NCBI GenBank assembly: GCA_017880775.1
Contig: JADGRQ010000019.1
Location: forward strand, 3,133-67,132
Length of the DNA stretch: 64,000 nt
From: Burkholderiales bacterium
GTDB taxonomy: Bacteria > Pseudomonadota > Gammaproteobacteria > Burkholderiales > SG8-39
Reading direction: 5' to 3'
Position 1 is the first letter of the stretch, and the number at the start of each line of letters is the position of its first letter. The notes under the pieces were generated by a model, which was given only the letters and a program-made list of their open reading frames with translations, was not told the origin of the DNA and did not search any database. Made by a program: the position numbers and the translations under genes. Positions 1,083 through 63,410 of the stretch are shown piece after piece.

Positions 1083-1160
1083 GTCGGGGTAAGCAGACTC
1101 CCGGCATTCCCAAGACGGCCACCCGTCCAAGTTCTGCCTGTCGCATCGGTCGCGAGAGGC
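1083..1160 (+). ncRNA. Structured leader RNA, copy 1 (chrB-motif-like riboswitch candidate), upstream of chrA
   Basis: P1 gtcgggg/ctcccggc around the GCAGA loop, aaGACG-gccacc-CGTC hairpin, caagtTCTGC (complementary to GCAGA), then hairpin gcctgtcgc...gcgagaggc covering the SD. Same layout as the copies at 5233 and 6766. Confidence 0.65.
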
Positions 1161-1168
1161 GTAGACGG

Positions 1169-2362
1169 ATGGAAACGAATCACCCTGTAGAAGATTTACC
1201 GGTTCCCGCGTATTCCCTGTGGGACCTGGTGCATTACGTGCTGCGGCTCGGCACCTTCGGATTCGGCGGCCCTGTAGCGCTCGTCGGCTACATGCATCGG
1301 GATCTCGTCGAGCAGCGTAAGTGGATCTCCGAGACCGACTACAAGGAGGGCCTGACGCTCGCGCAGCTCATGCCCGGCCCGCTCGCCGCGCAGCTCGCAA
1401 TCTACCTGGGCTTCGTGCACTACCGGATTCTCGGCGCGACGCTGGTCGGCATCGCGTTCGTTCTGCCGTCGTTTCTGATGGTGGTGGCGCTCGGAGCGGC
1501 CTACGTCGCTTATGGCGGCCTCACATGGATGCAGGCGGTGTTCTATGGGGTCGGCGCCGCCGTGATCGGCATCATCGCCATCAGCGCCTACAAGCTCACG
1601 ACCAAGAGCATCGGCAAGGATCGGGTGCTGTGGGCGATTTACCTGGTAGCGGCCGCTGTCACGATCGTCACGGAATCGGAGAGCGTGTGGCTGTTTCTCA
1701 CCGCCGGCGTGCTGGTTTGGCTGCTCAGGGCGCCGCCGAAGAACTGGTTCAGCAAGGACGGCGCCGCGAGCATGGCGTTGGCCGCGCAGCTCCCGACCGT
1801 TTCTGGAGTTGCCTCGGTCGTCGATTGGCCCGTGCTGCTTCAGATCGGAGTTTTCTTCGCCGAAGCGGGCGCCTTCGTCTTCGGCAGCGGTCTTGCGATT
1901 GTTCCGTTCCTTTACGGCGGCGTGGTCAATGAGCACCACTGGCTGAACGAGCGGCAGTTCATCGATGCCGTTGCGGTCGCAATGATTACACCGGGCCCAG
2001 TGGTTATCACGGTCGGTTTCATCGGCTATCTGATTGCGGGCTTTCCGGGTGCGGCGGTCGCTGCCCTCGCGACCTTTCTACCTTGCTATCTTTTCACGAT
2101 CATTCCAGCGCCGTACTTCAGGAAGCACGGCAAGAAGCCCGGAATCGTCGCGTTCGTGGACGGGGTAACGGCCGCCGCGATCGGCACGATTACGGGCGCG
2201 GTGATCGTCCTTGGCAAGCGCTCGATCAGCGATATTCCGACCGTCGCAATCTTTGTGATCACGATTCTGCTCCTTTGGAAAGTCAAAAAACTTCCCGAGC
2301 CAGCGATCGTGGCACTGGCGGCGGTGATTGGATTGGTTGTCTATCCGATGATGAAGACATAG
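1169..2362 (+). CDS. chrA: Chromate ion transporter (long-chain CHR family)
   Basis: LRLGTFGFGGP, AQLMPGPLAAQ, AFVFGSG and AMITPGPV motifs in two homologous halves. Start placed at ATG 1169 after gagagg. Confidence 0.93.
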   Translation: METNHPVEDLPVPAYSLWDLVHYVLRLGTFGFGGPVALVGYMHRDLVEQRKWISETDYKEGLTLAQLMPGPLAAQLAIYLGFVHYRILGATLVGIAFVLPSFLMVVALGAAYVAYGGLTWMQAVFYGVGAAVIGIIAISAYKLTTKSIGKDRVLWAIYLVAAAVTIVTESESVWLFLTAGVLVWLLRAPPKNWFSKDGAASMALAAQLPTVSGVASVVDWPVLLQIGVFFAEAGAFVFGSGLAIVPFLYGGVVNEHHWLNERQFIDAVAVAMITPGPVVITVGFIGYLIAGFPGAAVAALATFLPCYLFTIIPAPYFRKHGKKPGIVAFVDGVTAAAIGTITGAVIVLGKRSISDIPTVAIFVITILLLWKVKKLPEPAIVALAAVIGLVVYPMMKT

Positions 2363-2371
2363 GAGTCAGAT

Positions 2372-2995
2372 ATGAGAGGAGCCATCATGGTCGCATTGAC
2401 GGTGCTATCGACGACTGCCGCATTCGCTGAAACGGATAATTTCGACAAGGACAAGCCGGGTTCCGTGCCGGCCGGCTGGGCGTGCGGCGTAACGGGGAAG
2501 GGCAATCCCCGCTGGGCTGTCGACGCAGACGGTTCGGCCCCGAGCGCGCCCAACGTGCTCAGGCAGAATGGGTCGGGGACGTTTCCCTGGTGCGTGAAGA
2601 AGAACGCAGCGATTGCCGACGGATTTGTCGAAGTGAAATTCAAGTCTGAAAAGGGCAAAGAAGACCAGGCCGGCGGGGTGGTATGGCGCTGGAAGAGCGG
2701 AGACAACTACTACGTCGCCCGCGGAAACGCGCTGGAAAACAATCTGTCGCTTTACTACACCGCCAGTGGCAGTCGCAACACGATCAAGTATGTCGATGCT
2801 GCCGTACCGCCCAATGTCTGGCACACCTTGCGGGTGGAGTTCGCCGGCAGGCGAATCAAGGTGCTTCTCGATGGCAAACCATACATCGAGCTGGAGGACG
2901 ATCACATTGCGGGCGCCGGCGCGGTGGGCGTCTGGACGAAGGCGGACAGCGTCACCGCTTTCGACGATTTCAGTTACGGGGCAGTCGGCAAATAG
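2372..2995 (+). CDS. Secreted concanavalin/LamG-like beta-sandwich protein (DUF1080-like)
   Basis: Signal peptide, beta-rich sequence with WHTLRVEF and GAVGVWTKADSVTAFDDF, RBS aggag. Confidence 0.65.
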   Translation: MRGAIMVALTVLSTTAAFAETDNFDKDKPGSVPAGWACGVTGKGNPRWAVDADGSAPSAPNVLRQNGSGTFPWCVKKNAAIADGFVEVKFKSEKGKEDQAGGVVWRWKSGDNYYVARGNALENNLSLYYTASGSRNTIKYVDAAVPPNVWHTLRVEFAGRRIKVLLDGKPYIELEDDHIAGAGAVGVWTKADSVTAFDDFSYGAVGK

Positions 2996-2998
2996 GAG

Positions 2999-3931
2999 AT
3001 GGCCATGATCAAGATCATTGGTGGTTGTTTGATGTGTTGTTTGATTGCAATGACAGCTATTGCGGCCGGCACCAAGCTCGACACTGCGAAAATCGAGCAG
3101 ATCACGGGGATGAAGGGAAATTTCAATCAGAAGGAGAACGTCTTCAAAGTGAGCATGCCTCGGGCCGACGTGCAAGTCTCGGTTGACGGCTGGGCAATGC
3201 CGCCATTCATGGGTCTGGGTCCCTGGGCGGCGTTCACTCCGCATCACGGATCGATGGTGATGGTGATGGGCGACATGGTGCTCTTCCAGGATGAAGTGAA
3301 TCCTGCGATGAGCGCAGCGCTCAATTCCGGTCTGTCCGTGACCGCCCTTCATAACCACTTCTTCTTTGACGAGCCCAAGGTCTATTTCATGCACATAGAG
3401 GGAGAAGGTGCGGTCGAGAAGCTTGCCACTGGCGTAAGAGCAATCTTCGACACGGTAAAGGAGATCCGCGCGAAGAATGCGCAGCCCGCGACCGTATTTC
3501 CTGGCGAGCGCATACCAGTGCAGAGCTCGATTTCCGCAAAGCCGCTACAGGAAATCTTTGGCATTCCGGGCCAGTTGAACAACGGCATGTTCAAGGCAGT
3601 GTTCGGGCGAACGACCAAAATGAACGGAACCACGGTCGGCAACGAGATGGGCGTCAATACCTGGGCAGCATTTGCCGGCTCCGACGACAACGCGGTGGTT
3701 GATGGCGATTTTGCGATGTACGAGAGCGAGCTCCAAACCGTGCTCAGGGCCATGCGCAACGGGGGCATCAACATTGTCGCTATCCATCACCACATGAGCG
3801 ACGAGAAACCCAAATTCCTGTTCCTTCACTACTGGGGCCGGGGCAAGGCGGAGGACTTGGCGCGCGCATTGCATAGTGCAATGGAATCACAACGCGCGGG
3901 CAGCAAGAGAAAGAGCGGCCACGGTGGGTGA
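2999..3931 (+). CDS. DUF1259 (LppY/LpqO-like) secreted protein with two His-rich repeats
   Basis: Signal peptide and duplicated domain with TALHNHFFFDEPKVYFMH and VAIHHHMSDEKPKFLFLHYWG. Confidence 0.8.
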   Translation: MAMIKIIGGCLMCCLIAMTAIAAGTKLDTAKIEQITGMKGNFNQKENVFKVSMPRADVQVSVDGWAMPPFMGLGPWAAFTPHHGSMVMVMGDMVLFQDEVNPAMSAALNSGLSVTALHNHFFFDEPKVYFMHIEGEGAVEKLATGVRAIFDTVKEIRAKNAQPATVFPGERIPVQSSISAKPLQEIFGIPGQLNNGMFKAVFGRTTKMNGTTVGNEMGVNTWAAFAGSDDNAVVDGDFAMYESELQTVLRAMRNGGINIVAIHHHMSDEKPKFLFLHYWGRGKAEDLARALHSAMESQRAGSKRKSGHGG

Positions 3932-4173
3932 CGCGGCGCGCCGCGTACTCCACACTGGTGCGTTGTTTCTGTCAATGGGAACGGGGCTCGCAGAGAATTG
4001 GAAGGTCGTGAAGCGTGAGGCGGCGCGAGCCCTTTTCGCCGACAAAGAGTTTGGTGATGGCGTGCACTTTGCTTATCGGTTTCGTACGGACGGAACCTTT
4101 TCCGGGACCGAAATGGGGAAGGACGTTCGGGGCACCCGGCGCGTCGAGTCTCTCGACTTCGAGCGGCGACGGT

Positions 4174-5124
4174 CTACCGAGTTTGGCGTCGTGCGTAGGC
4201 CGAATAAAACATATCCAGAATTCGCCTGGCCTCGGCAAGCACCGCGTCGTCGGTCCGGGCCTTATCCTTGGCTCCTCTCATGAGGGTTTCCAGGCCCTTG
4301 GCGTCGGCGACTGGAATACCACCGATGTCGAGAAAGTGCACCGCGGCGCCGATTGCGCCGAGCGCCGGATCGTTGTCAAGTCCGAAGCTCGCGAGAAGAA
4401 CCTCGAATGTCACGCGGTTATCAACGTGCGTGAATTCTGCACCGTCGAAATCGAAGCCGATGGCCTTCTTCGGGCGGTCGCGCGGACGATCAATCCAGAC
4501 GAACCTGGCATCCCCGTCGATGAACCGCTTGATGAGCCAGGCGCTGGCGAGACGGTCCACCCACAGGTCTTTGCGGGTGGCCCATAGACGCCTCTGATAC
4601 CGCTTCCTATTGACTTGCTGCAGCCGCTTGCTGGCTGGGTGCGGCTCCCCGCGGGGATACGCTTCCTGAAAGCTTCGCTTGAGTGCCGAAATCGCTTCGG
4701 CAGCTTGCATCTTCGCCCCGTCCGGAAAGAAGTCGATCTGCGTCAGCCTGTCGAATGAGCGCTGCAAACGCTGAATCGTCGTCTGTGCTTTGCGAGGTCC
4801 AAGGCGCGGCATCGAATTCATCGCGACGCCGACCTTCCGGACGAGCGCGCCGTAATCGGCGCTACGGTCGAATAATTTGCGCACCTGCTCGAGATGTTCG
4901 GCCGACTTGATCTCCAGTTCGACCGTCATGGCGAAGCCGCCGGCTGCGACGATCTGGGATTCCATTTTTGCCAGAACCGCGTCGCCTGCTGAGCCTGCTG
5001 GCAGGACGTAGACGCCATCGCGCAGCACGCCACAGCCCGTTTCCTTTAGTGCCCGCCAGACCCGCATCCGAACTGTCGAATGACGCACGGGCAGGCTCAG
5101 AACCAAGGCATCGAATCGAGACAT
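4174..5124 (-). CDS. chrB: Chromate-responsive regulator ChrB (N-terminal HTH plus ChrB_C)
   Basis: RMRVWRALKETGCGVLRDGVYVLP N-terminus; WATRKDLWVDRLASAWLIKRFID and GFDFDGAEFTH...VTFEVL C-terminal motifs. Confidence 0.92.
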   Translation of the reverse strand: MSRFDALVLSLPVRHSTVRMRVWRALKETGCGVLRDGVYVLPAGSAGDAVLAKMESQIVAAGGFAMTVELEIKSAEHLEQVRKLFDRSADYGALVRKVGVAMNSMPRLGPRKAQTTIQRLQRSFDRLTQIDFFPDGAKMQAAEAISALKRSFQEAYPRGEPHPASKRLQQVNRKRYQRRLWATRKDLWVDRLASAWLIKRFIDGDARFVWIDRPRDRPKKAIGFDFDGAEFTHVDNRVTFEVLLASFGLDNDPALGAIGAAVHFLDIGGIPVADAKGLETLMRGAKDKARTDDAVLAEARRILDMFYSAYARRQTR

Positions 5125-5135
5125 TTCAGTTATAG

Positions 5136-5186
5136 ATATTACATATTAGTGATAGTCTTGACAAGAGATGTGGACTGGGATAAGGT
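5136..5186. promoter_or_regulatory. Overlapping divergent sigma70-type promoters with an AT-rich imperfect palindrome (candidate ChrB operator)
   Basis: Plus strand: TTGACA (5158-5163), 17 bp, TAAGGT (5181-5186). Minus strand: TTGTCA (5164-5159), 17 bp, TAATAT (5141-5136). Imperfect inverted repeat tattac-atatta-gtgata. Confidence 0.6.
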
Positions 5187-5232
5187 CCGCTCCACGTAGG
5201 AGGCTCGACCGCTAGAAACAGCAGTCGGGTTC

Positions 5233-5314
5233 CCTAGCCGGGTTTTACGCAGACACCCGGTCCACAAAGACGCTTCCGTCTCAAGCGCTGCTCCATTCCC
5301 TTTCGGGGAAGGAG
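5233..5314 (+). ncRNA. Structured leader RNA, copy 2 (chrB-motif-like riboswitch candidate)
   Basis: cctagCCGGG-ttttacGCAGaca-CCCGG tccacaaa GACG-cttc-CGTC tcaagcgCTGC, then ctccattccc-tttc-ggggaaggag hairpin occluding the SD of ATG 5322. Confidence 0.75.
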
Positions 5315-5321
5315 TACGTGT

Positions 5322-5465
5322 ATGAGCAACGGAATCGCATCAAATATCGTGCTCGGTCCAGGCGCGGCAGCAAAGCGCTCCGCAACGGCGAACCGCAGCA
5401 CTCGGCTCCTCACACGATCGGATGTTGCCAGGCTGCTGCGCCTACCAGAATGCATCGACGCGGGC
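5322..5465 (+). pseudogene. N-terminal remnant of an ornithine cyclodeaminase/mu-crystallin family gene
   Basis: TRLLTRSDVARLLRLPECIDA resembles the family N-terminus and the similarity is lost immediately afterwards. Strong SD (aaggag). End coordinate approximate. Confidence 0.45.
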
Positions 5466-5751
5466 CTGCCGAAGGCCATCTCCGGCAGCGATATCTGCAC
5501 CACCTGCACTCCATCCCGCCGATTCATTGTTGATCGGGACTGCGTACCGCCGGGCGCAAGCCAGGACGGCAAAGCGAGACGGAAACGATCGTTTTCGATT
5601 CAAGCGGGGTCGCGTTGGGAGATGTCGCTGCCGCGGCCCTGGTGTACGAGCGGGCAGTCCAGCTCAGCGGTGGTCCGTCCATCTGCCTGACGGACTGAAA
5701 CGCTCAATTAGTGAATTTACCCAGTGTCACAACCACCATGGAGACTTTGAC

Positions 5752-6705
5752 ATGCGCTATCAGTTGAAACAAATTTACTGCCGTCCCTGGACGCTGAGCG
5801 GCCTTTCGCTGCCACTCATCGAGAGCCACTACGAGAACAACTATGGCGGGGCGCTGCGGCGCCTGAACGCCATCACCGAGCAGCTCGAGTCGCTCGATTT
5901 CGCGAACACGCCGGGCTACGTCATCAACGGCCTGAAGCGTGAGGAGCTGGTCGCGCTCAATTCCACGCTGCTGCACGAGCTCTATTTCGCCAGCCTGGGC
6001 GGCGATGGCCGGGTGACCAATGCGATGTCCGAGGCGCTCGCGCGCGACTTCGGCTCGGTTCAGTGCTGGCGCACCGAGTTTTCCGCCATGGGCTACGCGC
6101 TGGGCGGCGGCTCGGGATGGGTACTACTTTGCTGGATGCCGCGCGACGGCCGCCTGATCAACCAGTACGCGGCCGAACACAGCCAGGCGGTGGCGGGCGG
6201 CATCCCGATGCTCGCGCTCGACGTGTACGAGCACGCCTACCACATCGATTTCGGCGCGAATGTGAAGGCCTACGTCGACACGTTCCTGCGGAACATCGAC
6301 TGGCAGGCGGTCGAGGGCCGCTACGAAGATGCAATCAAGGTGGCGCCGCCGCGGCCGCTGGTGCAGGAGGAATTCGGCAACCTGCCCGGCGTCGGCGTCG
6401 AGGAGGTGAGGGCGATGCTGGCAGAAGGCAAACCCTTGCAGCTCATCGACACGCGGCCGATGCATTTCGTCTCGCGCCAGAAGGACATCGCGGAAGGCGT
6501 CACCTGGCGCGACCCGGAGAGAGTGCAGGAATGGATGGGCGAGCTCTCGAAATCCGACCCGGTGGTGGTGTATTGCGCCTACGGCTTTCACGTCGGCTGC
6601 CGCACCGCGATCGCGCTTCGCGAGGCTGGCTTCGACGCCCGCTACATGAAGGTCGGTCATTCGGGCTGGAAGGCGGCCGGCGGCCCGATCCGGATGCAGG
6701 CGTAG
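5752..6705 (+). CDS. chrC: Fe/Mn superoxide dismutase (ChrC-like) fused to a C-terminal rhodanese domain
   Basis: ESHYENNYGG, LHELYF, GGSGWV and LDVYEHAYHIDFG SOD motifs; VVVYCAYGFHVG rhodanese loop. Start ATG 5752 after ggaga. Confidence 0.85.
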   Translation: MRYQLKQIYCRPWTLSGLSLPLIESHYENNYGGALRRLNAITEQLESLDFANTPGYVINGLKREELVALNSTLLHELYFASLGGDGRVTNAMSEALARDFGSVQCWRTEFSAMGYALGGGSGWVLLCWMPRDGRLINQYAAEHSQAVAGGIPMLALDVYEHAYHIDFGANVKAYVDTFLRNIDWQAVEGRYEDAIKVAPPRPLVQEEFGNLPGVGVEEVRAMLAEGKPLQLIDTRPMHFVSRQKDIAEGVTWRDPERVQEWMGELSKSDPVVVYCAYGFHVGCRTAIALREAGFDARYMKVGHSGWKAAGGPIRMQA

Positions 6706-6765
6706 CCGCACGGCTATCGAACTCGAAATGTAGGCGGCTGGCTGCCGGGAACGGAAGCTGAGCCG

Positions 6766-6848
6766 CCTAGCCGGGTCATAAGGCAGACACCCGGCCCACA
6801 AAGACGATCTCGTCGCAAGCGCTGCTCCCATTCCCTTCGGGAAGGAGC
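6766..6848 (+). ncRNA. Structured leader RNA, copy 3 (chrB-motif-like riboswitch candidate)
   Basis: Close repeat of 5233-5314, with the differences mainly in loops (tcataag vs ttttac; atct vs cttc). SD aaggag lies in the 3' hairpin. An upstream 9-bp inverted repeat taggcggct (6731-6739)/agccgccta (6761-6769) abuts it. Confidence 0.75.
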
Positions 6849-6857
6849 GAGGTACAC

Positions 6858-7652
6858 ATGAATACGATCACTTTTTCAGAGTTGCGGTCGGCACTTGGCG
6901 AGCGTAATGCTCCCATCGTGCTGGACGTCAGGCGGCAGCCCGCTTACCGCGAAGCGAACGACACGATCTCCGGCGCACTGCGCCGCGATCCGGACGCTGT
7001 CGGCGATTGGGCGAAAACACTGCCGCGCGGGAGCAGCGTCGTCGCGTACTGCGTGCACGGACATGAAGTGAGCCAGAAGGTGGCGAAGACGCTCGATGAA
7101 CATCAAATCCGTGCGCGCTACCTGGAAGGCGGTATCGAAGCCTGGAAGGCGAAACAGGGGCCGCTTGACCGCAAGCCCGCGGGCGGGGACACACGCTGGG
7201 TGACGCGCGAGCGTCCCAAGATCGACCGCATTGCCTGTCCGTGGCTGATCGCGCGCTTCGTCGACCGCGACGCGGAATTTCTGTACGTGCCGCCCAAGCA
7301 GGTGCTCGAGGTGGCGCAGGCGCGCGACGCCGTGCCGTACGACGTTCCCGATGTGCGTTTTACGCACGACGGCGAGCTCTGCAGTTTCGACGCGTTCATC
7401 AAGCATTACCGATTGATCGGCGATCCAGCGCTCGAGCGGCTTGCGCTGATCGTCCGCGGCGCGGACACCGGGAATCTGGATCTCGCCGCTCAGGCGCCGG
7501 GGCTCGCCGCCGTGTCGCTCGGACTGTCGCGCATCTTCTCGGACGACCACGAGATGCTGAAGCATGGAATGGTCGTTTACGACGCGCTCTACGCCTGGTG
7601 CAAGGAGGGTCAGGACGAAGTCCACACATGGAATCCGGAAGCCTACCGCTGA
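6858..7652 (+). CDS. Rhodanese (ChrE-like) plus ChrB_C (ChrF-like) fusion protein
   Basis: LDVRR...VVAYCVHGHEVS...YLEGGIEAW rhodanese; RWVTRERPKIDRIACPWLIARFVD and FTHDGELCSFDA ChrB_C motifs. Confidence 0.85.
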   Translation: MNTITFSELRSALGERNAPIVLDVRRQPAYREANDTISGALRRDPDAVGDWAKTLPRGSSVVAYCVHGHEVSQKVAKTLDEHQIRARYLEGGIEAWKAKQGPLDRKPAGGDTRWVTRERPKIDRIACPWLIARFVDRDAEFLYVPPKQVLEVAQARDAVPYDVPDVRFTHDGELCSFDAFIKHYRLIGDPALERLALIVRGADTGNLDLAAQAPGLAAVSLGLSRIFSDDHEMLKHGMVVYDALYAWCKEGQDEVHTWNPEAYR

Positions 7653-52992: not shown

Positions 52993-53069
52993 TGGCGGAG
53001 TGGACGGGACTCGAACCCGCGACCCCCGGCGTGACAGGCCGGTATTCTAACCAACTGAACTACCACTCC
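52993..53069 (-). tRNA. tRNA-Asp(GTC)
   Basis: 77-nt cloverleaf GGAGTGGTAGTTCAGTTGGTTAGAATACCGGCCTGTCACGCCGG...GTTCGAGTC...CCGCCA. Confidence 0.97.
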
Positions 53070-63335: not shown

Positions 63336-63410
63336 TGGTGGGTGCGGAGAGGGTCGAACTCCCGACATCTGCCTTGTAAGGGCAGCGCTCTACCACTGAG
63401 CTACGCACCC
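63336..63410 (-). tRNA. tRNA-Val(TAC), intact; integration target
   Basis: 75-nt cloverleaf GGGTGCGTAGCTCAGTGGTAGAGCGCTGCCCTTACAAGGCAG...GTTCGACCC...CACCA. Confidence 0.96.

Follow-up and report, generated by a model that had tools for sequence, protein, structure and literature searches.

The 64,000-nucleotide (nt) window analysed here (Burkholderiales bacterium, GenBank assembly GCA_017880775.1, contig JADGRQ010000019.1, positions 3,133 to 67,132; all coordinates below are those of the window unless a contig is named) contains a chromate-resistance cluster in which one and the same short leader occurs three times, and this raises the question of what such a leader does to the gene that follows it. 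The answer put forward here is that each repeat is a cis-acting chrB-b leader, which probably controls translation of the next gene via two mutually exclusive folds, whereby leader 1 would govern chrA, the chromate transporter gene, leader 3 would govern a rhodanese-ChrB_C gene and leader 2 would address the start codon of a decayed-looking open reading frame (ORF). Within this model, fold A would correspond to the conserved motif, which consists of two hairpins, P1 and P2, plus a pseudoknot in which the loop of P1 (GCAGA) is paired to the tail at the 3' end (UCUGC). In fold B, the thermodynamic default, the start codon as well as the first codons would be base-paired to the P2 loop, the P2 3' arm and the first bases of the adjoining CAAG, and the Shine-Dalgarno (SD) region would be base-paired to the pseudoknot 3' strand along with the nucleotides that follow it, one long interrupted hairpin thus burying the ribosome-binding site. 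A signal linked to chromate stress is assumed to stabilise fold A, which would tie up both 'anti' strands, free SD and AUG and thereby turn translation on.

The identity of the repeats was addressed with a search of the whole window against Rfam 15 (cmscan, gathering thresholds), in which three leaders on the plus strand matched chrB-b (RF03086) above its cut-off of 36.5 bits, each of them over model positions 1-49 of 49. The matches are located at 1084-1137 for copy 1 (56.9 bits, E 4.6e-9), 5238-5291 for copy 2 (47.5 bits, E 1.1e-6) and 6771-6825 for copy 3 (45.7 bits, E 3e-6), and these scores are far beyond chance. No match of the chrB-a model (RF03078, cut-off 43.9 bits) to the three window copies (L001, L003, L004) was obtained at E up to 1. 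Apart from chrB-b, Rfam matched only two minus-strand tRNA genes in the window, at 52996-53069 and 63339-63410 (70.4 and 72.2 bits), which are unrelated to the leaders. An earlier note on this DNA, written from the sequence alone, had placed three leaders of the layout described below at 1083-1160, 5233-5314 and 6766-6848 and had brought up the chrB-a/chrB-b family; both statements were borne out by the search. What it called an orphan riboswitch candidate is no new orphan, as the element had already been published as the candidate chrB-b. In the sections of that publication at hand (Weinberg et al. 2017, PMC5737381), chrB-a and chrB-b are described as related motifs in potential 5' untranslated regions (UTRs) of several chromate-resistance gene classes, and a role in chromate sensing is suggested for them.

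All three window copies possess a P1 hairpin with the loop GCAG(A)C, a P2 hairpin of the form AGACG...CGUC and an unpaired CAAG-NN-CUGC tail, and they are structurally members of chrB-b, with which they share the P1 loop GCAGAC, the P2 AGACG..CGUC, the CAAG-NN-CUGC tail and the location within a leader. In copy 1, P1 is formed by 1084-1089 and 1099-1104, P2 by 1114-1118 and 1123-1127 (loop 1119-1122), CAAG is found at 1128-1131 and GCAGA 1093-1097 can form a five-pair pseudoknot with UCUGC 1133-1137. Copy 2 comprises P1 at 5238-5243/5255-5260, P2 at 5268-5272/5277-5281, CAAG at 5282-5285 and a pseudoknot of four pairs between GCAG 5249-5252 and CUGC 5288-5291. In copy 3, the respective elements are P1 at 6771-6776/6789-6794, P2 at 6803-6806/6811-6814, CAAG at 6816-6819 and a five-pair pseudoknot, one G.U pair included, between GGCAG 6782-6786 and CUGCU 6822-6826. 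P1 and P2 are kept with pair changes between the copies, such as G1089.U1099 versus U5243-A5255 and U1084.G1104 versus C5238-G5260, in line with the previous remark that stems are kept and loops vary. Between copies 2 and 3 the identity amounts to 84.5% over 84 nt (5233-5314 versus 6766-6847), a span that includes the flank before P1 as well as the SD hairpin and that fits the boundaries originally given for them; such similarity points to recent paralogs, produced in the cluster by duplication or conversion. A fourth copy, absent from the earlier note, was found when the RF03086 model was run against the genome, on another contig and on the minus strand (C19:97358-97409, 49.6 bits). Behind this leader (L002, G000:C19:95858-98909) lies a decayed locus, in which a rhodanese-ChrB_C homolog is reduced to residues 9-56 (52% identity), followed by a 79-amino-acid (aa) ORF weakly resembling the C-terminal end of a chromate transporter (E 0.0012, below cut-off) and by an intact DUF1330 gene; the leader itself retains the pairing CGUCCA:UGGACG.

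For comparison, two sources of chrB-b leaders were combined. Searches with the RNA model found chrB-b in 2 of 151 genomes of a class-wide sample and in 19 of 151 genomes of an order sample, 17 of the latter above cut-off, with four copies in one genome (G271) and two each in three others (G198, G239, G221). As an RNA-independent set, 80 loci from named genomes were collected via alignment of the rhodanese-ChrB_C protein and then scanned with Rfam; at 58 of them a leader was identified upstream on the strand of the gene, 36 being chrB-b and 22 chrB-a. The chrB-a records belong to Bradyrhizobium, Mesorhizobium, Paracoccus and the like, and chrB-b comes from betaproteobacterial records plus some from Alphaproteobacteria (Ferrovibrio, Elioraea, Aliidongia, Oceanibacterium); the nearest protein relatives of the rhodanese-ChrB_C protein of the window likewise come from Burkholderiales or betaproteobacterial records. 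The available sections of PMC5737381 place the motifs in alpha-Proteobacteria, a range that is no structural criterion. Eight of the 22 rhodanese-ChrB_C loci that gave no Rfam match bear, as judged by eye, divergent leaders (L078, L087, L102, L076, L041, L043, L054, L061), some of them with pseudoknots that differ in sequence, such as GGUGGA:UCCGCC, GACGGU:ACCGUC and AGCGGU:ACCGCU; these subtypes are missed by the curated models. In total 65 chrB-b sites were used, of which the genome searches contributed 26 and the 80 loci 39, with two sub-threshold sites left out (L021 and L022, one with a large insertion and the other having no gene nearby). The set for platform analysis consists of 59 unique leaders, obtained after dropping two exact duplicates and four sites at which the distance to the chosen start exceeds 60 nt (L017, L020, L030 and the second copy of L051); start codons were chosen by SD and ATG rules and, save for three hand-picked ones, without reference to P2. 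In L030, a complement of P2, GGGACACCG, occurs about 25 nt after the motif and about 60 nt upstream of the chosen start, followed by a second P2-like copy; its platform may be rearranged or its start mis-called. In L013 (from genome G156) and in the minus-strand copy of L074, the leader is followed by a short ORF beginning AUGGA, which has the look of a stump left by a first gene that was lost; the gene of full length, which in L013 is chrA, starts more than 100 nt further on.

The first of the two long-range helices, the pseudoknot, was examined in 61 distinct chrB-b sequences, with CAG as the anchor of the loop and the end of the model match as that of the tail. Its three central pairs are formed in 61 of 61 sequences, and contiguous pairing amounts to at least four pairs in all 61 and at least five in 49. 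At x5:y5, four Watson-Crick pair types were encountered (A-U 21, G-C 8, C-G 6, U-A 3) next to G.U in nine sequences, U.G in one and no pair in 13, and at x1:y1 the counts are G-C 47, A-U 4, G.U 2, U.G 1 and unpaired 7; furthermore, the central A-U is replaced by G-C in two sequences (GCGG:CCGC). When tails were swapped among sequences, the observed pairing was reached by 0 of 20,000 swaps, a statistic that is inflated by the relatedness of the sequences. At the same place, 18 of the 22 chrB-a leaders show the pairing GCGA(U):(A)UCGC, the other four not having been parsed, and comparison of GCGAU:AUCGC in chrB-a with GCAGA:UCUGC in chrB-b therefore indicates that the helix was kept between the families through two double changes. 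Judged by this pattern of substitutions, the pseudoknot between the P1 loop and the tail is real and covarying. The complementarity of GCAG(A) and (T)CTGC, which had already been pointed out for the window, accordingly holds with four to five pairs in each copy, and the check on covariation among homologs that had been proposed along with it came out in its favour.

The second helix lies outside the Rfam model, which ends at CUGC and does not contain an expression platform, and it constitutes the stronger half of the platform, of which the earlier note had made no mention. The P2 loop together with the P2 3' arm was found to be complementary to the start-codon region of the leader's own gene, with both sides changing together. 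Within positions of about -12 to +20, the longest contiguous P2:start helix, G.U pairs included, reaches at least six pairs in 52 of 59 leaders, at least seven in 41 and at least eight in 26, and its mean length of 7.59 compares with 5.74 for dinucleotide-shuffled start regions (standard deviation of the shuffle means 0.145). The mean duplex energy is -17.05 kcal/mol with the own start region and -14.11 kcal/mol with those of other leaders (n=59), and the observed energy sum was reached by 0 of 20,000 permutations; the result is robust to removal of the three hand-picked starts (56 leaders) and holds on 43 distinct P2 sequences. Two registers prevail. In register 1, which is best in 22 leaders, an A of CAAG pairs with the U of AUG (..GCGUCCA:UGGACGC..), and in register 2, found in 13 leaders, CGGUGUCC pairs with GGACACCG. 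Register 1 extends into the P2 loop in a compensatory manner, as illustrated by GGUGCGUCCA:UGGACGCACC, CUCGCGUCCA:UGGACGCGAG, GGUAUCCA:UGGAUACC and CCGUCCA:UGGACGG, with a 13-pair example in L073, and a further compensatory example is given by GCGGUGUCC:GGACACCGC versus ACGGUGUCC:GGACACCGU. Swapping within the register 1 group alone gave 239.2 +/- 4.7 as compared to 264 observed, with 0 of 20,000 swaps matching. In an alignment of 40 leaders that share the first five pairs, a selection that biases those five, 77.6% of the cells are paired as compared to 24.6-34.2% with the partner slid by one to three columns, the covariation score is 0.157 versus 0.100 (reached by 0 of 500 shuffles) and both sides change in 6 of 10 pairs. 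The pairing coincides with a restricted choice of first codons: 38 of 56 leaders start NUGGAC or NUGGAU, and the same AUGGACGC start is found on unrelated proteins, namely rhodanese-ChrB_C, ChrA (L019) and a 3-keto-disaccharide-hydrolase-like protein (L006), thus it is the RNA, not the protein, that imposes the constraint.

Complementary arms of this kind might also be read at the level of DNA, as inverted repeats serving as operators for ChrB or another dimeric regulator, an idea that is prompted by the position of chrB, which adjoins leader 2 and diverges from it, and by the description of ChrB as a chromate-responsive transcriptional regulator. We consider this very improbable, as G.U pairs, which would be mismatches in DNA, are frequent within both long-range helices (nine G.U and one U.G at x5:y5 and several in the start helix) and as the spacing of the arms varies between 12 and 46 nt, both of which argue for pairing of RNA rather than for a DNA palindrome. 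Moreover, the elements reside inside transcribed leaders, overlap the start codon and are scored well by an RNA-structure covariance model.

Whether the two helix sets exclude each other was evaluated by folding of the 59 leaders from the motif to codon 7. In free minimum-energy folds, 53 of 59 leaders have at least five start-region nt paired to the P2 segment, 54 no longer contain P2 itself, 47 have at least two paired AUG bases and 37 have an SD that is at least 75% paired. Of the 59 free folds, 39 have at least 2 nt of the pseudoknot 3' strand paired to the SD window, and 47 have this strand paired to the wider initiation region. All four copies of the genome belong to the former group, with 3-5 nt of the tail strand involved; this agrees with the previous observation that CTGC overlaps the base of the SD hairpin, which is a general feature. 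Forcing P1 and P2 costs 6.45 kcal/mol on average (median 5.9, n=59). With the motif fold imposed and the pseudoknot strands blocked, the unpaired probability of positions -13 to +5 rises from 0.30 to 0.45, with an increase in 52 of 59 leaders, and the energy gap amounts to 10.8 kcal/mol before any credit for pseudoknot, tertiary contacts or ligand; these differences in energy and accessibility follow in part from the imposed constraints, and the pseudoknot energy is outside the calculation. Taken as a whole, the leaders combine a conserved core with a platform of mutually exclusive, covarying pairings (P2 versus P2:start, pseudoknot versus anti-SD), as is typical for elements of the riboswitch type.

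That the default fold buries SD and AUG might be sufficient for a leader that senses nothing and instead acts as a fixed structure, throttling translation or stabilising the mRNA, or that responds to a physical cue such as temperature, with the motif fold serving only folding kinetics or protection against RNases. This explanation, which would also be in keeping with the lack of a known ligand and with an SD hairpin of copy 3 that is stable in both modelled states, is judged improbable: without switching, it is difficult to see why two mutually exclusive helix sets should both be kept by compensatory changes, conservation of the unpaired core bases is strict and the association with chromate-resistance genes is tight across alpha- and beta-proteobacterial records.

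Within the window, the putative platforms were delineated from minimum-energy folds and a helix search, all on the plus strand. In copy 1 (platform 1135-1172), the anti-SD UGCCU 1135-1139 pairs with AGGCG 1157-1161, the SD being GAGAGG 1154-1159, and GACGGAUGG at 1164-1172, which contains the chrA AUG 1169-1171, is complementary at 8 of 9 positions to CCACCCGUC at 1119-1127, that is, to the P2 loop and 3' arm; in the ortholog L023 the complementarity extends to 9 of 9 positions. The platform of copy 2 (5291-5334) comprises an SD hairpin at 5291-5314 (CUCC.UUCCC/GGGAA.GGAG, SD 5311-5314, AUG 5322-5324), P2 nucleotides UUCCGU 5274-5279 pair with ACGGAA 5329-5334 and in the minimum-energy fold CUCA 5280-5283 is paired with UGAG 5323-5326; the fold has a z-score of -4.93, and equally good folding was seen in 0 of 200 shuffles. 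For copy 3 (6823-6860), an SD hairpin was found in which UGCUCC 6823-6828 and UUCCC 6831-6835 face GGGAA 6839-6843 and GGAGCG 6844-6849, with the SD at 6844-6847 and the AUG at 6858-6860, and this hairpin overlaps the pseudoknot 3' strand by 3-4 nt. The gene behind copy 3 does not have the AUGGAC-type start that is typical of most rhodanese-ChrB_C genes.

If translation is set by a choice between two folds, the trigger is most likely a small ligand or ion that is bound by the RNA itself. The main competing explanation assumes that a protein sets the switch by binding to fold A or fold B, be it a ChrB_C-domain protein, with rhodanese-ChrB_C regulating its own synthesis, or another factor. This is considered unlikely, and it has to be weighed along with the gene context, which speaks for it. 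The commonest gene downstream of the 26 genome-search sites is rhodanese-ChrB_C (14 sites), followed by chrA (four sites, and one more behind a short stump ORF), a gene for superoxide dismutase (SOD)-rhodanese (two), a 3-keto-disaccharide-hydrolase-like gene (two), a gene or ORF without Pfam match (two) and a decayed locus (one). As given above, a chrB-a or chrB-b leader precedes 58 of the 80 rhodanese-ChrB_C genes, and ChrB_C is encoded in 14 of the 16 motif-bearing genomes. Likewise, in the sections of PMC5737381 at hand, in vitro tests revealed no binding of chromate or related chemicals. On the other hand, no ChrB_C domain was found in two motif-bearing genomes, G275 (100% complete) and G156 (96% complete), and in the former an intact leader with the pairing GCGUCCA:UGGACGC precedes chrA, which therefore favours an RNA working without that protein and speaks against ChrB_C as an obligatory partner. 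In addition, a literature search turned up no RNA-binding activity of ChrB_C, and a compact pseudoknotted core with invariant unpaired CAAG and AGAC is typical of small-ligand aptamers.

Based on the preferred reading, in which the RNA itself is set by a small ligand or ion, a more far-reaching proposal can be made, which we hold tentatively: chrB-b might be a self-sufficient RNA sensor of chromate stress that works as a double-lock translational ON switch and whose anti-start helix dictates the first codons of the gene. Here, the sensed compound might be the oxyanion under conditions as yet untried, or else something that the cell produces on exposure to chromate. The 3' half of P2 and the 3' strand of the pseudoknot might double as anti-start and anti-SD elements, and the dictated codons might be the Met-Asp-Ala or Met-Asp-Thr of otherwise unrelated proteins.

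The genes around the three leaders make up a chromate-resistance cluster, in agreement with the earlier note. Leader 1 ends 31 nt before chrA (1169-2362, plus strand, chromate transporter of 397 aa, PF02417, E 7.1e-78), behind which a 3-keto-disaccharide-hydrolase-like gene (2372-2995, plus strand, PF06439, E 2.5e-7) and a DUF1259 gene (2999-3931, plus strand, PF07485, E 1.7e-78) are located. Leader 3 lies 32 nt before the rhodanese-ChrB_C gene (6858-7652, plus strand, 264 aa, PF09828, E 9.6e-50, and PF00581, E 2.5e-8), hence both copies reside in the putative 5' UTR of a gene related to chromate resistance, as is characteristic of the location of chrB-b. Between the two, chrB (4174-5124, minus strand, ChrB_N and ChrB_C, PF09828, E 1.9e-40, and PF20229, E 5.5e-8) points away from leader 2, which precedes a doubtful ORF of 122 codons (5322-5690, plus strand) and then a fused gene for a SOD-like (Sod_Fe_C) and rhodanese protein (5752-6705, plus strand, PF02777, E 5.1e-22, and PF00581, E 1.8e-7), whose start at 5752 lies 430 nt further on. 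The 122-codon ORF has no Pfam match and no counterpart in 40 genomes of the same family, and its G+C content by codon position (0.57/0.65/0.67) compares with about 0.65/0.43/0.8 in the neighbouring genes; no coding-type G+C periodicity was detected in any frame of 5330-5750. It was also considered as an ortholog of the 193-aa protein that is encoded behind the orthologous leader L028, a candidate that was rejected: as tblastn against 5200-5800 yielded nothing meaningful (best E 4.9), it is not a recognisable ortholog of that protein. The ORF and the stretch between leader 2 and the SOD-rhodanese gene are thus probably non-coding or decayed. Of the earlier proposal of separate control of three units, the parts on chrA (leader 1) and on the rhodanese-ChrB_C gene (leader 3) are retained, and control of the SOD-rhodanese gene by leader 2 is uncertain, the ORF at 5322 being non-coding in appearance.

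Signals of transcription were sought around the leaders as well. The promoter scan identified no plus-strand promoter before any leader, and its sole promoter-like match, TTGTCA-N17-TAATAT on the minus strand (5164 to 5136), is found in the AT-rich intergenic region of chrB and leader 2 (5125-5237), which could represent the promoter and operator region of chrB. Two candidates picked by eye, TTGCAG-N17-TAGGAT with its end immediately ahead of copy 1 and TTGACA-N17-TAAGGT some 50 nt upstream of copy 2, fail the scan criteria and are not relied on. No terminator-like site was found 3' of any leader, and such sites are no commoner than in shuffled sequences. Transcription attenuation was rejected as the mode of control, since the hairpins of the leaders are followed by no terminator-like element with a U-tract. 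Evidence for transcripts comes from a single contig of a soil metatranscriptome (X12), which spans 6595-6849 with one difference and contains the 3' end of the SOD-rhodanese gene and the entire leader 3; it fits read-through from this gene into leader 3, DNA carry-over being possible. X12 covers parts of the stretch, the uncovered parts being uninformative, and nothing in the Nanopore cDNA run X22 matched the stretch. Contigs of the DNA run X2 cease to match the window at 6846-6849, which is the end of the leader 3 SD hairpin, and one X12 RNA contig, longer than its matching part, aligns only up to 6849; there may be a strain-level breakpoint at this junction of leader and gene.

Several of these findings weigh against the model of a translational switch made of two folds, in addition to the effects of sequence relatedness, of selection and of imposed constraints that were given above with the respective numbers. 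Seven of the 59 leaders form fewer than six contiguous P2:start pairs, and SD pairing is no lower with P1 and P2 forced, being found in 37 of 59 leaders in both states. In copy 3, P2 persists in the free fold and a P2:AUG helix is missing; as an alternative, its P2 nucleotides AUCUCGU 6807-6813 can pair with GCGAGGU 6847-6853 (seven pairs, three of them G.U). The ON direction is derived from architecture and from the logic of resistance genes, leader 2 addresses an ORF that is probably non-coding, transcription is documented by the one metatranscriptome contig with its possible DNA origin, and the published binding tests with chromate and related chemicals, as far as the sections of that report at hand go, were negative.

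Compact cores of about 50 nt with a loop-to-tail pseudoknot are likewise known from the fluoride/crcB, guanidine-III and preQ1-II/III riboswitches, in which the ribosome-binding site is controlled by strands common to aptamer and platform, and the fluoride riboswitch is a case of an anion-responsive RNA that turns on an exporter. None of these has a sequence or model match to the chrB-b leaders, and in contrast to them the sequestered target in chrB-b extends beyond the SD to the start codon and the first codons. The overall layout is shared by chrB-a, in which the P1 loop also pairs downstream (GCGAU:AUCGC), a short second hairpin and a conserved (C/G)AAG are present, and a helix GCGUCC...GGACGC then buries the ribosome-binding region just before the AUG; chrB-a also precedes rhodanese-ChrB_C genes, at 22 of the 80 loci. 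The two differ in the place of GCGUCC: in chrB-a it comes after the pseudoknot strand and occludes the SD region immediately 5' of the AUG (L084, L097, L080), whereas in chrB-b it is the P2 3' arm and hides the AUG and codons 2-3.

As regards the window, a known motif is found in its expected gene context and novelty is low. A literature search retrieved no paper later than that of 2017 that assigns a ligand to chrB or describes its mechanism or platform. New are the covariation of the pseudoknot, the P2:start helix and the pairing of the pseudoknot 3' strand with the SD, parts of which may already be contained elsewhere in PMC5737381. The two-state model renders the ligand-less candidate of 2017 more testable, as it points to defined compensatory mutations for both long-range helices, the pseudoknot and P2:start, and it implies that the full leader through codon 5, and not the 49-nt core alone, is the relevant unit for probing. 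If a ligand is found, chrB-b would represent a naturally occurring RNA that senses chromate stress, and it could then be of use in biosensing.

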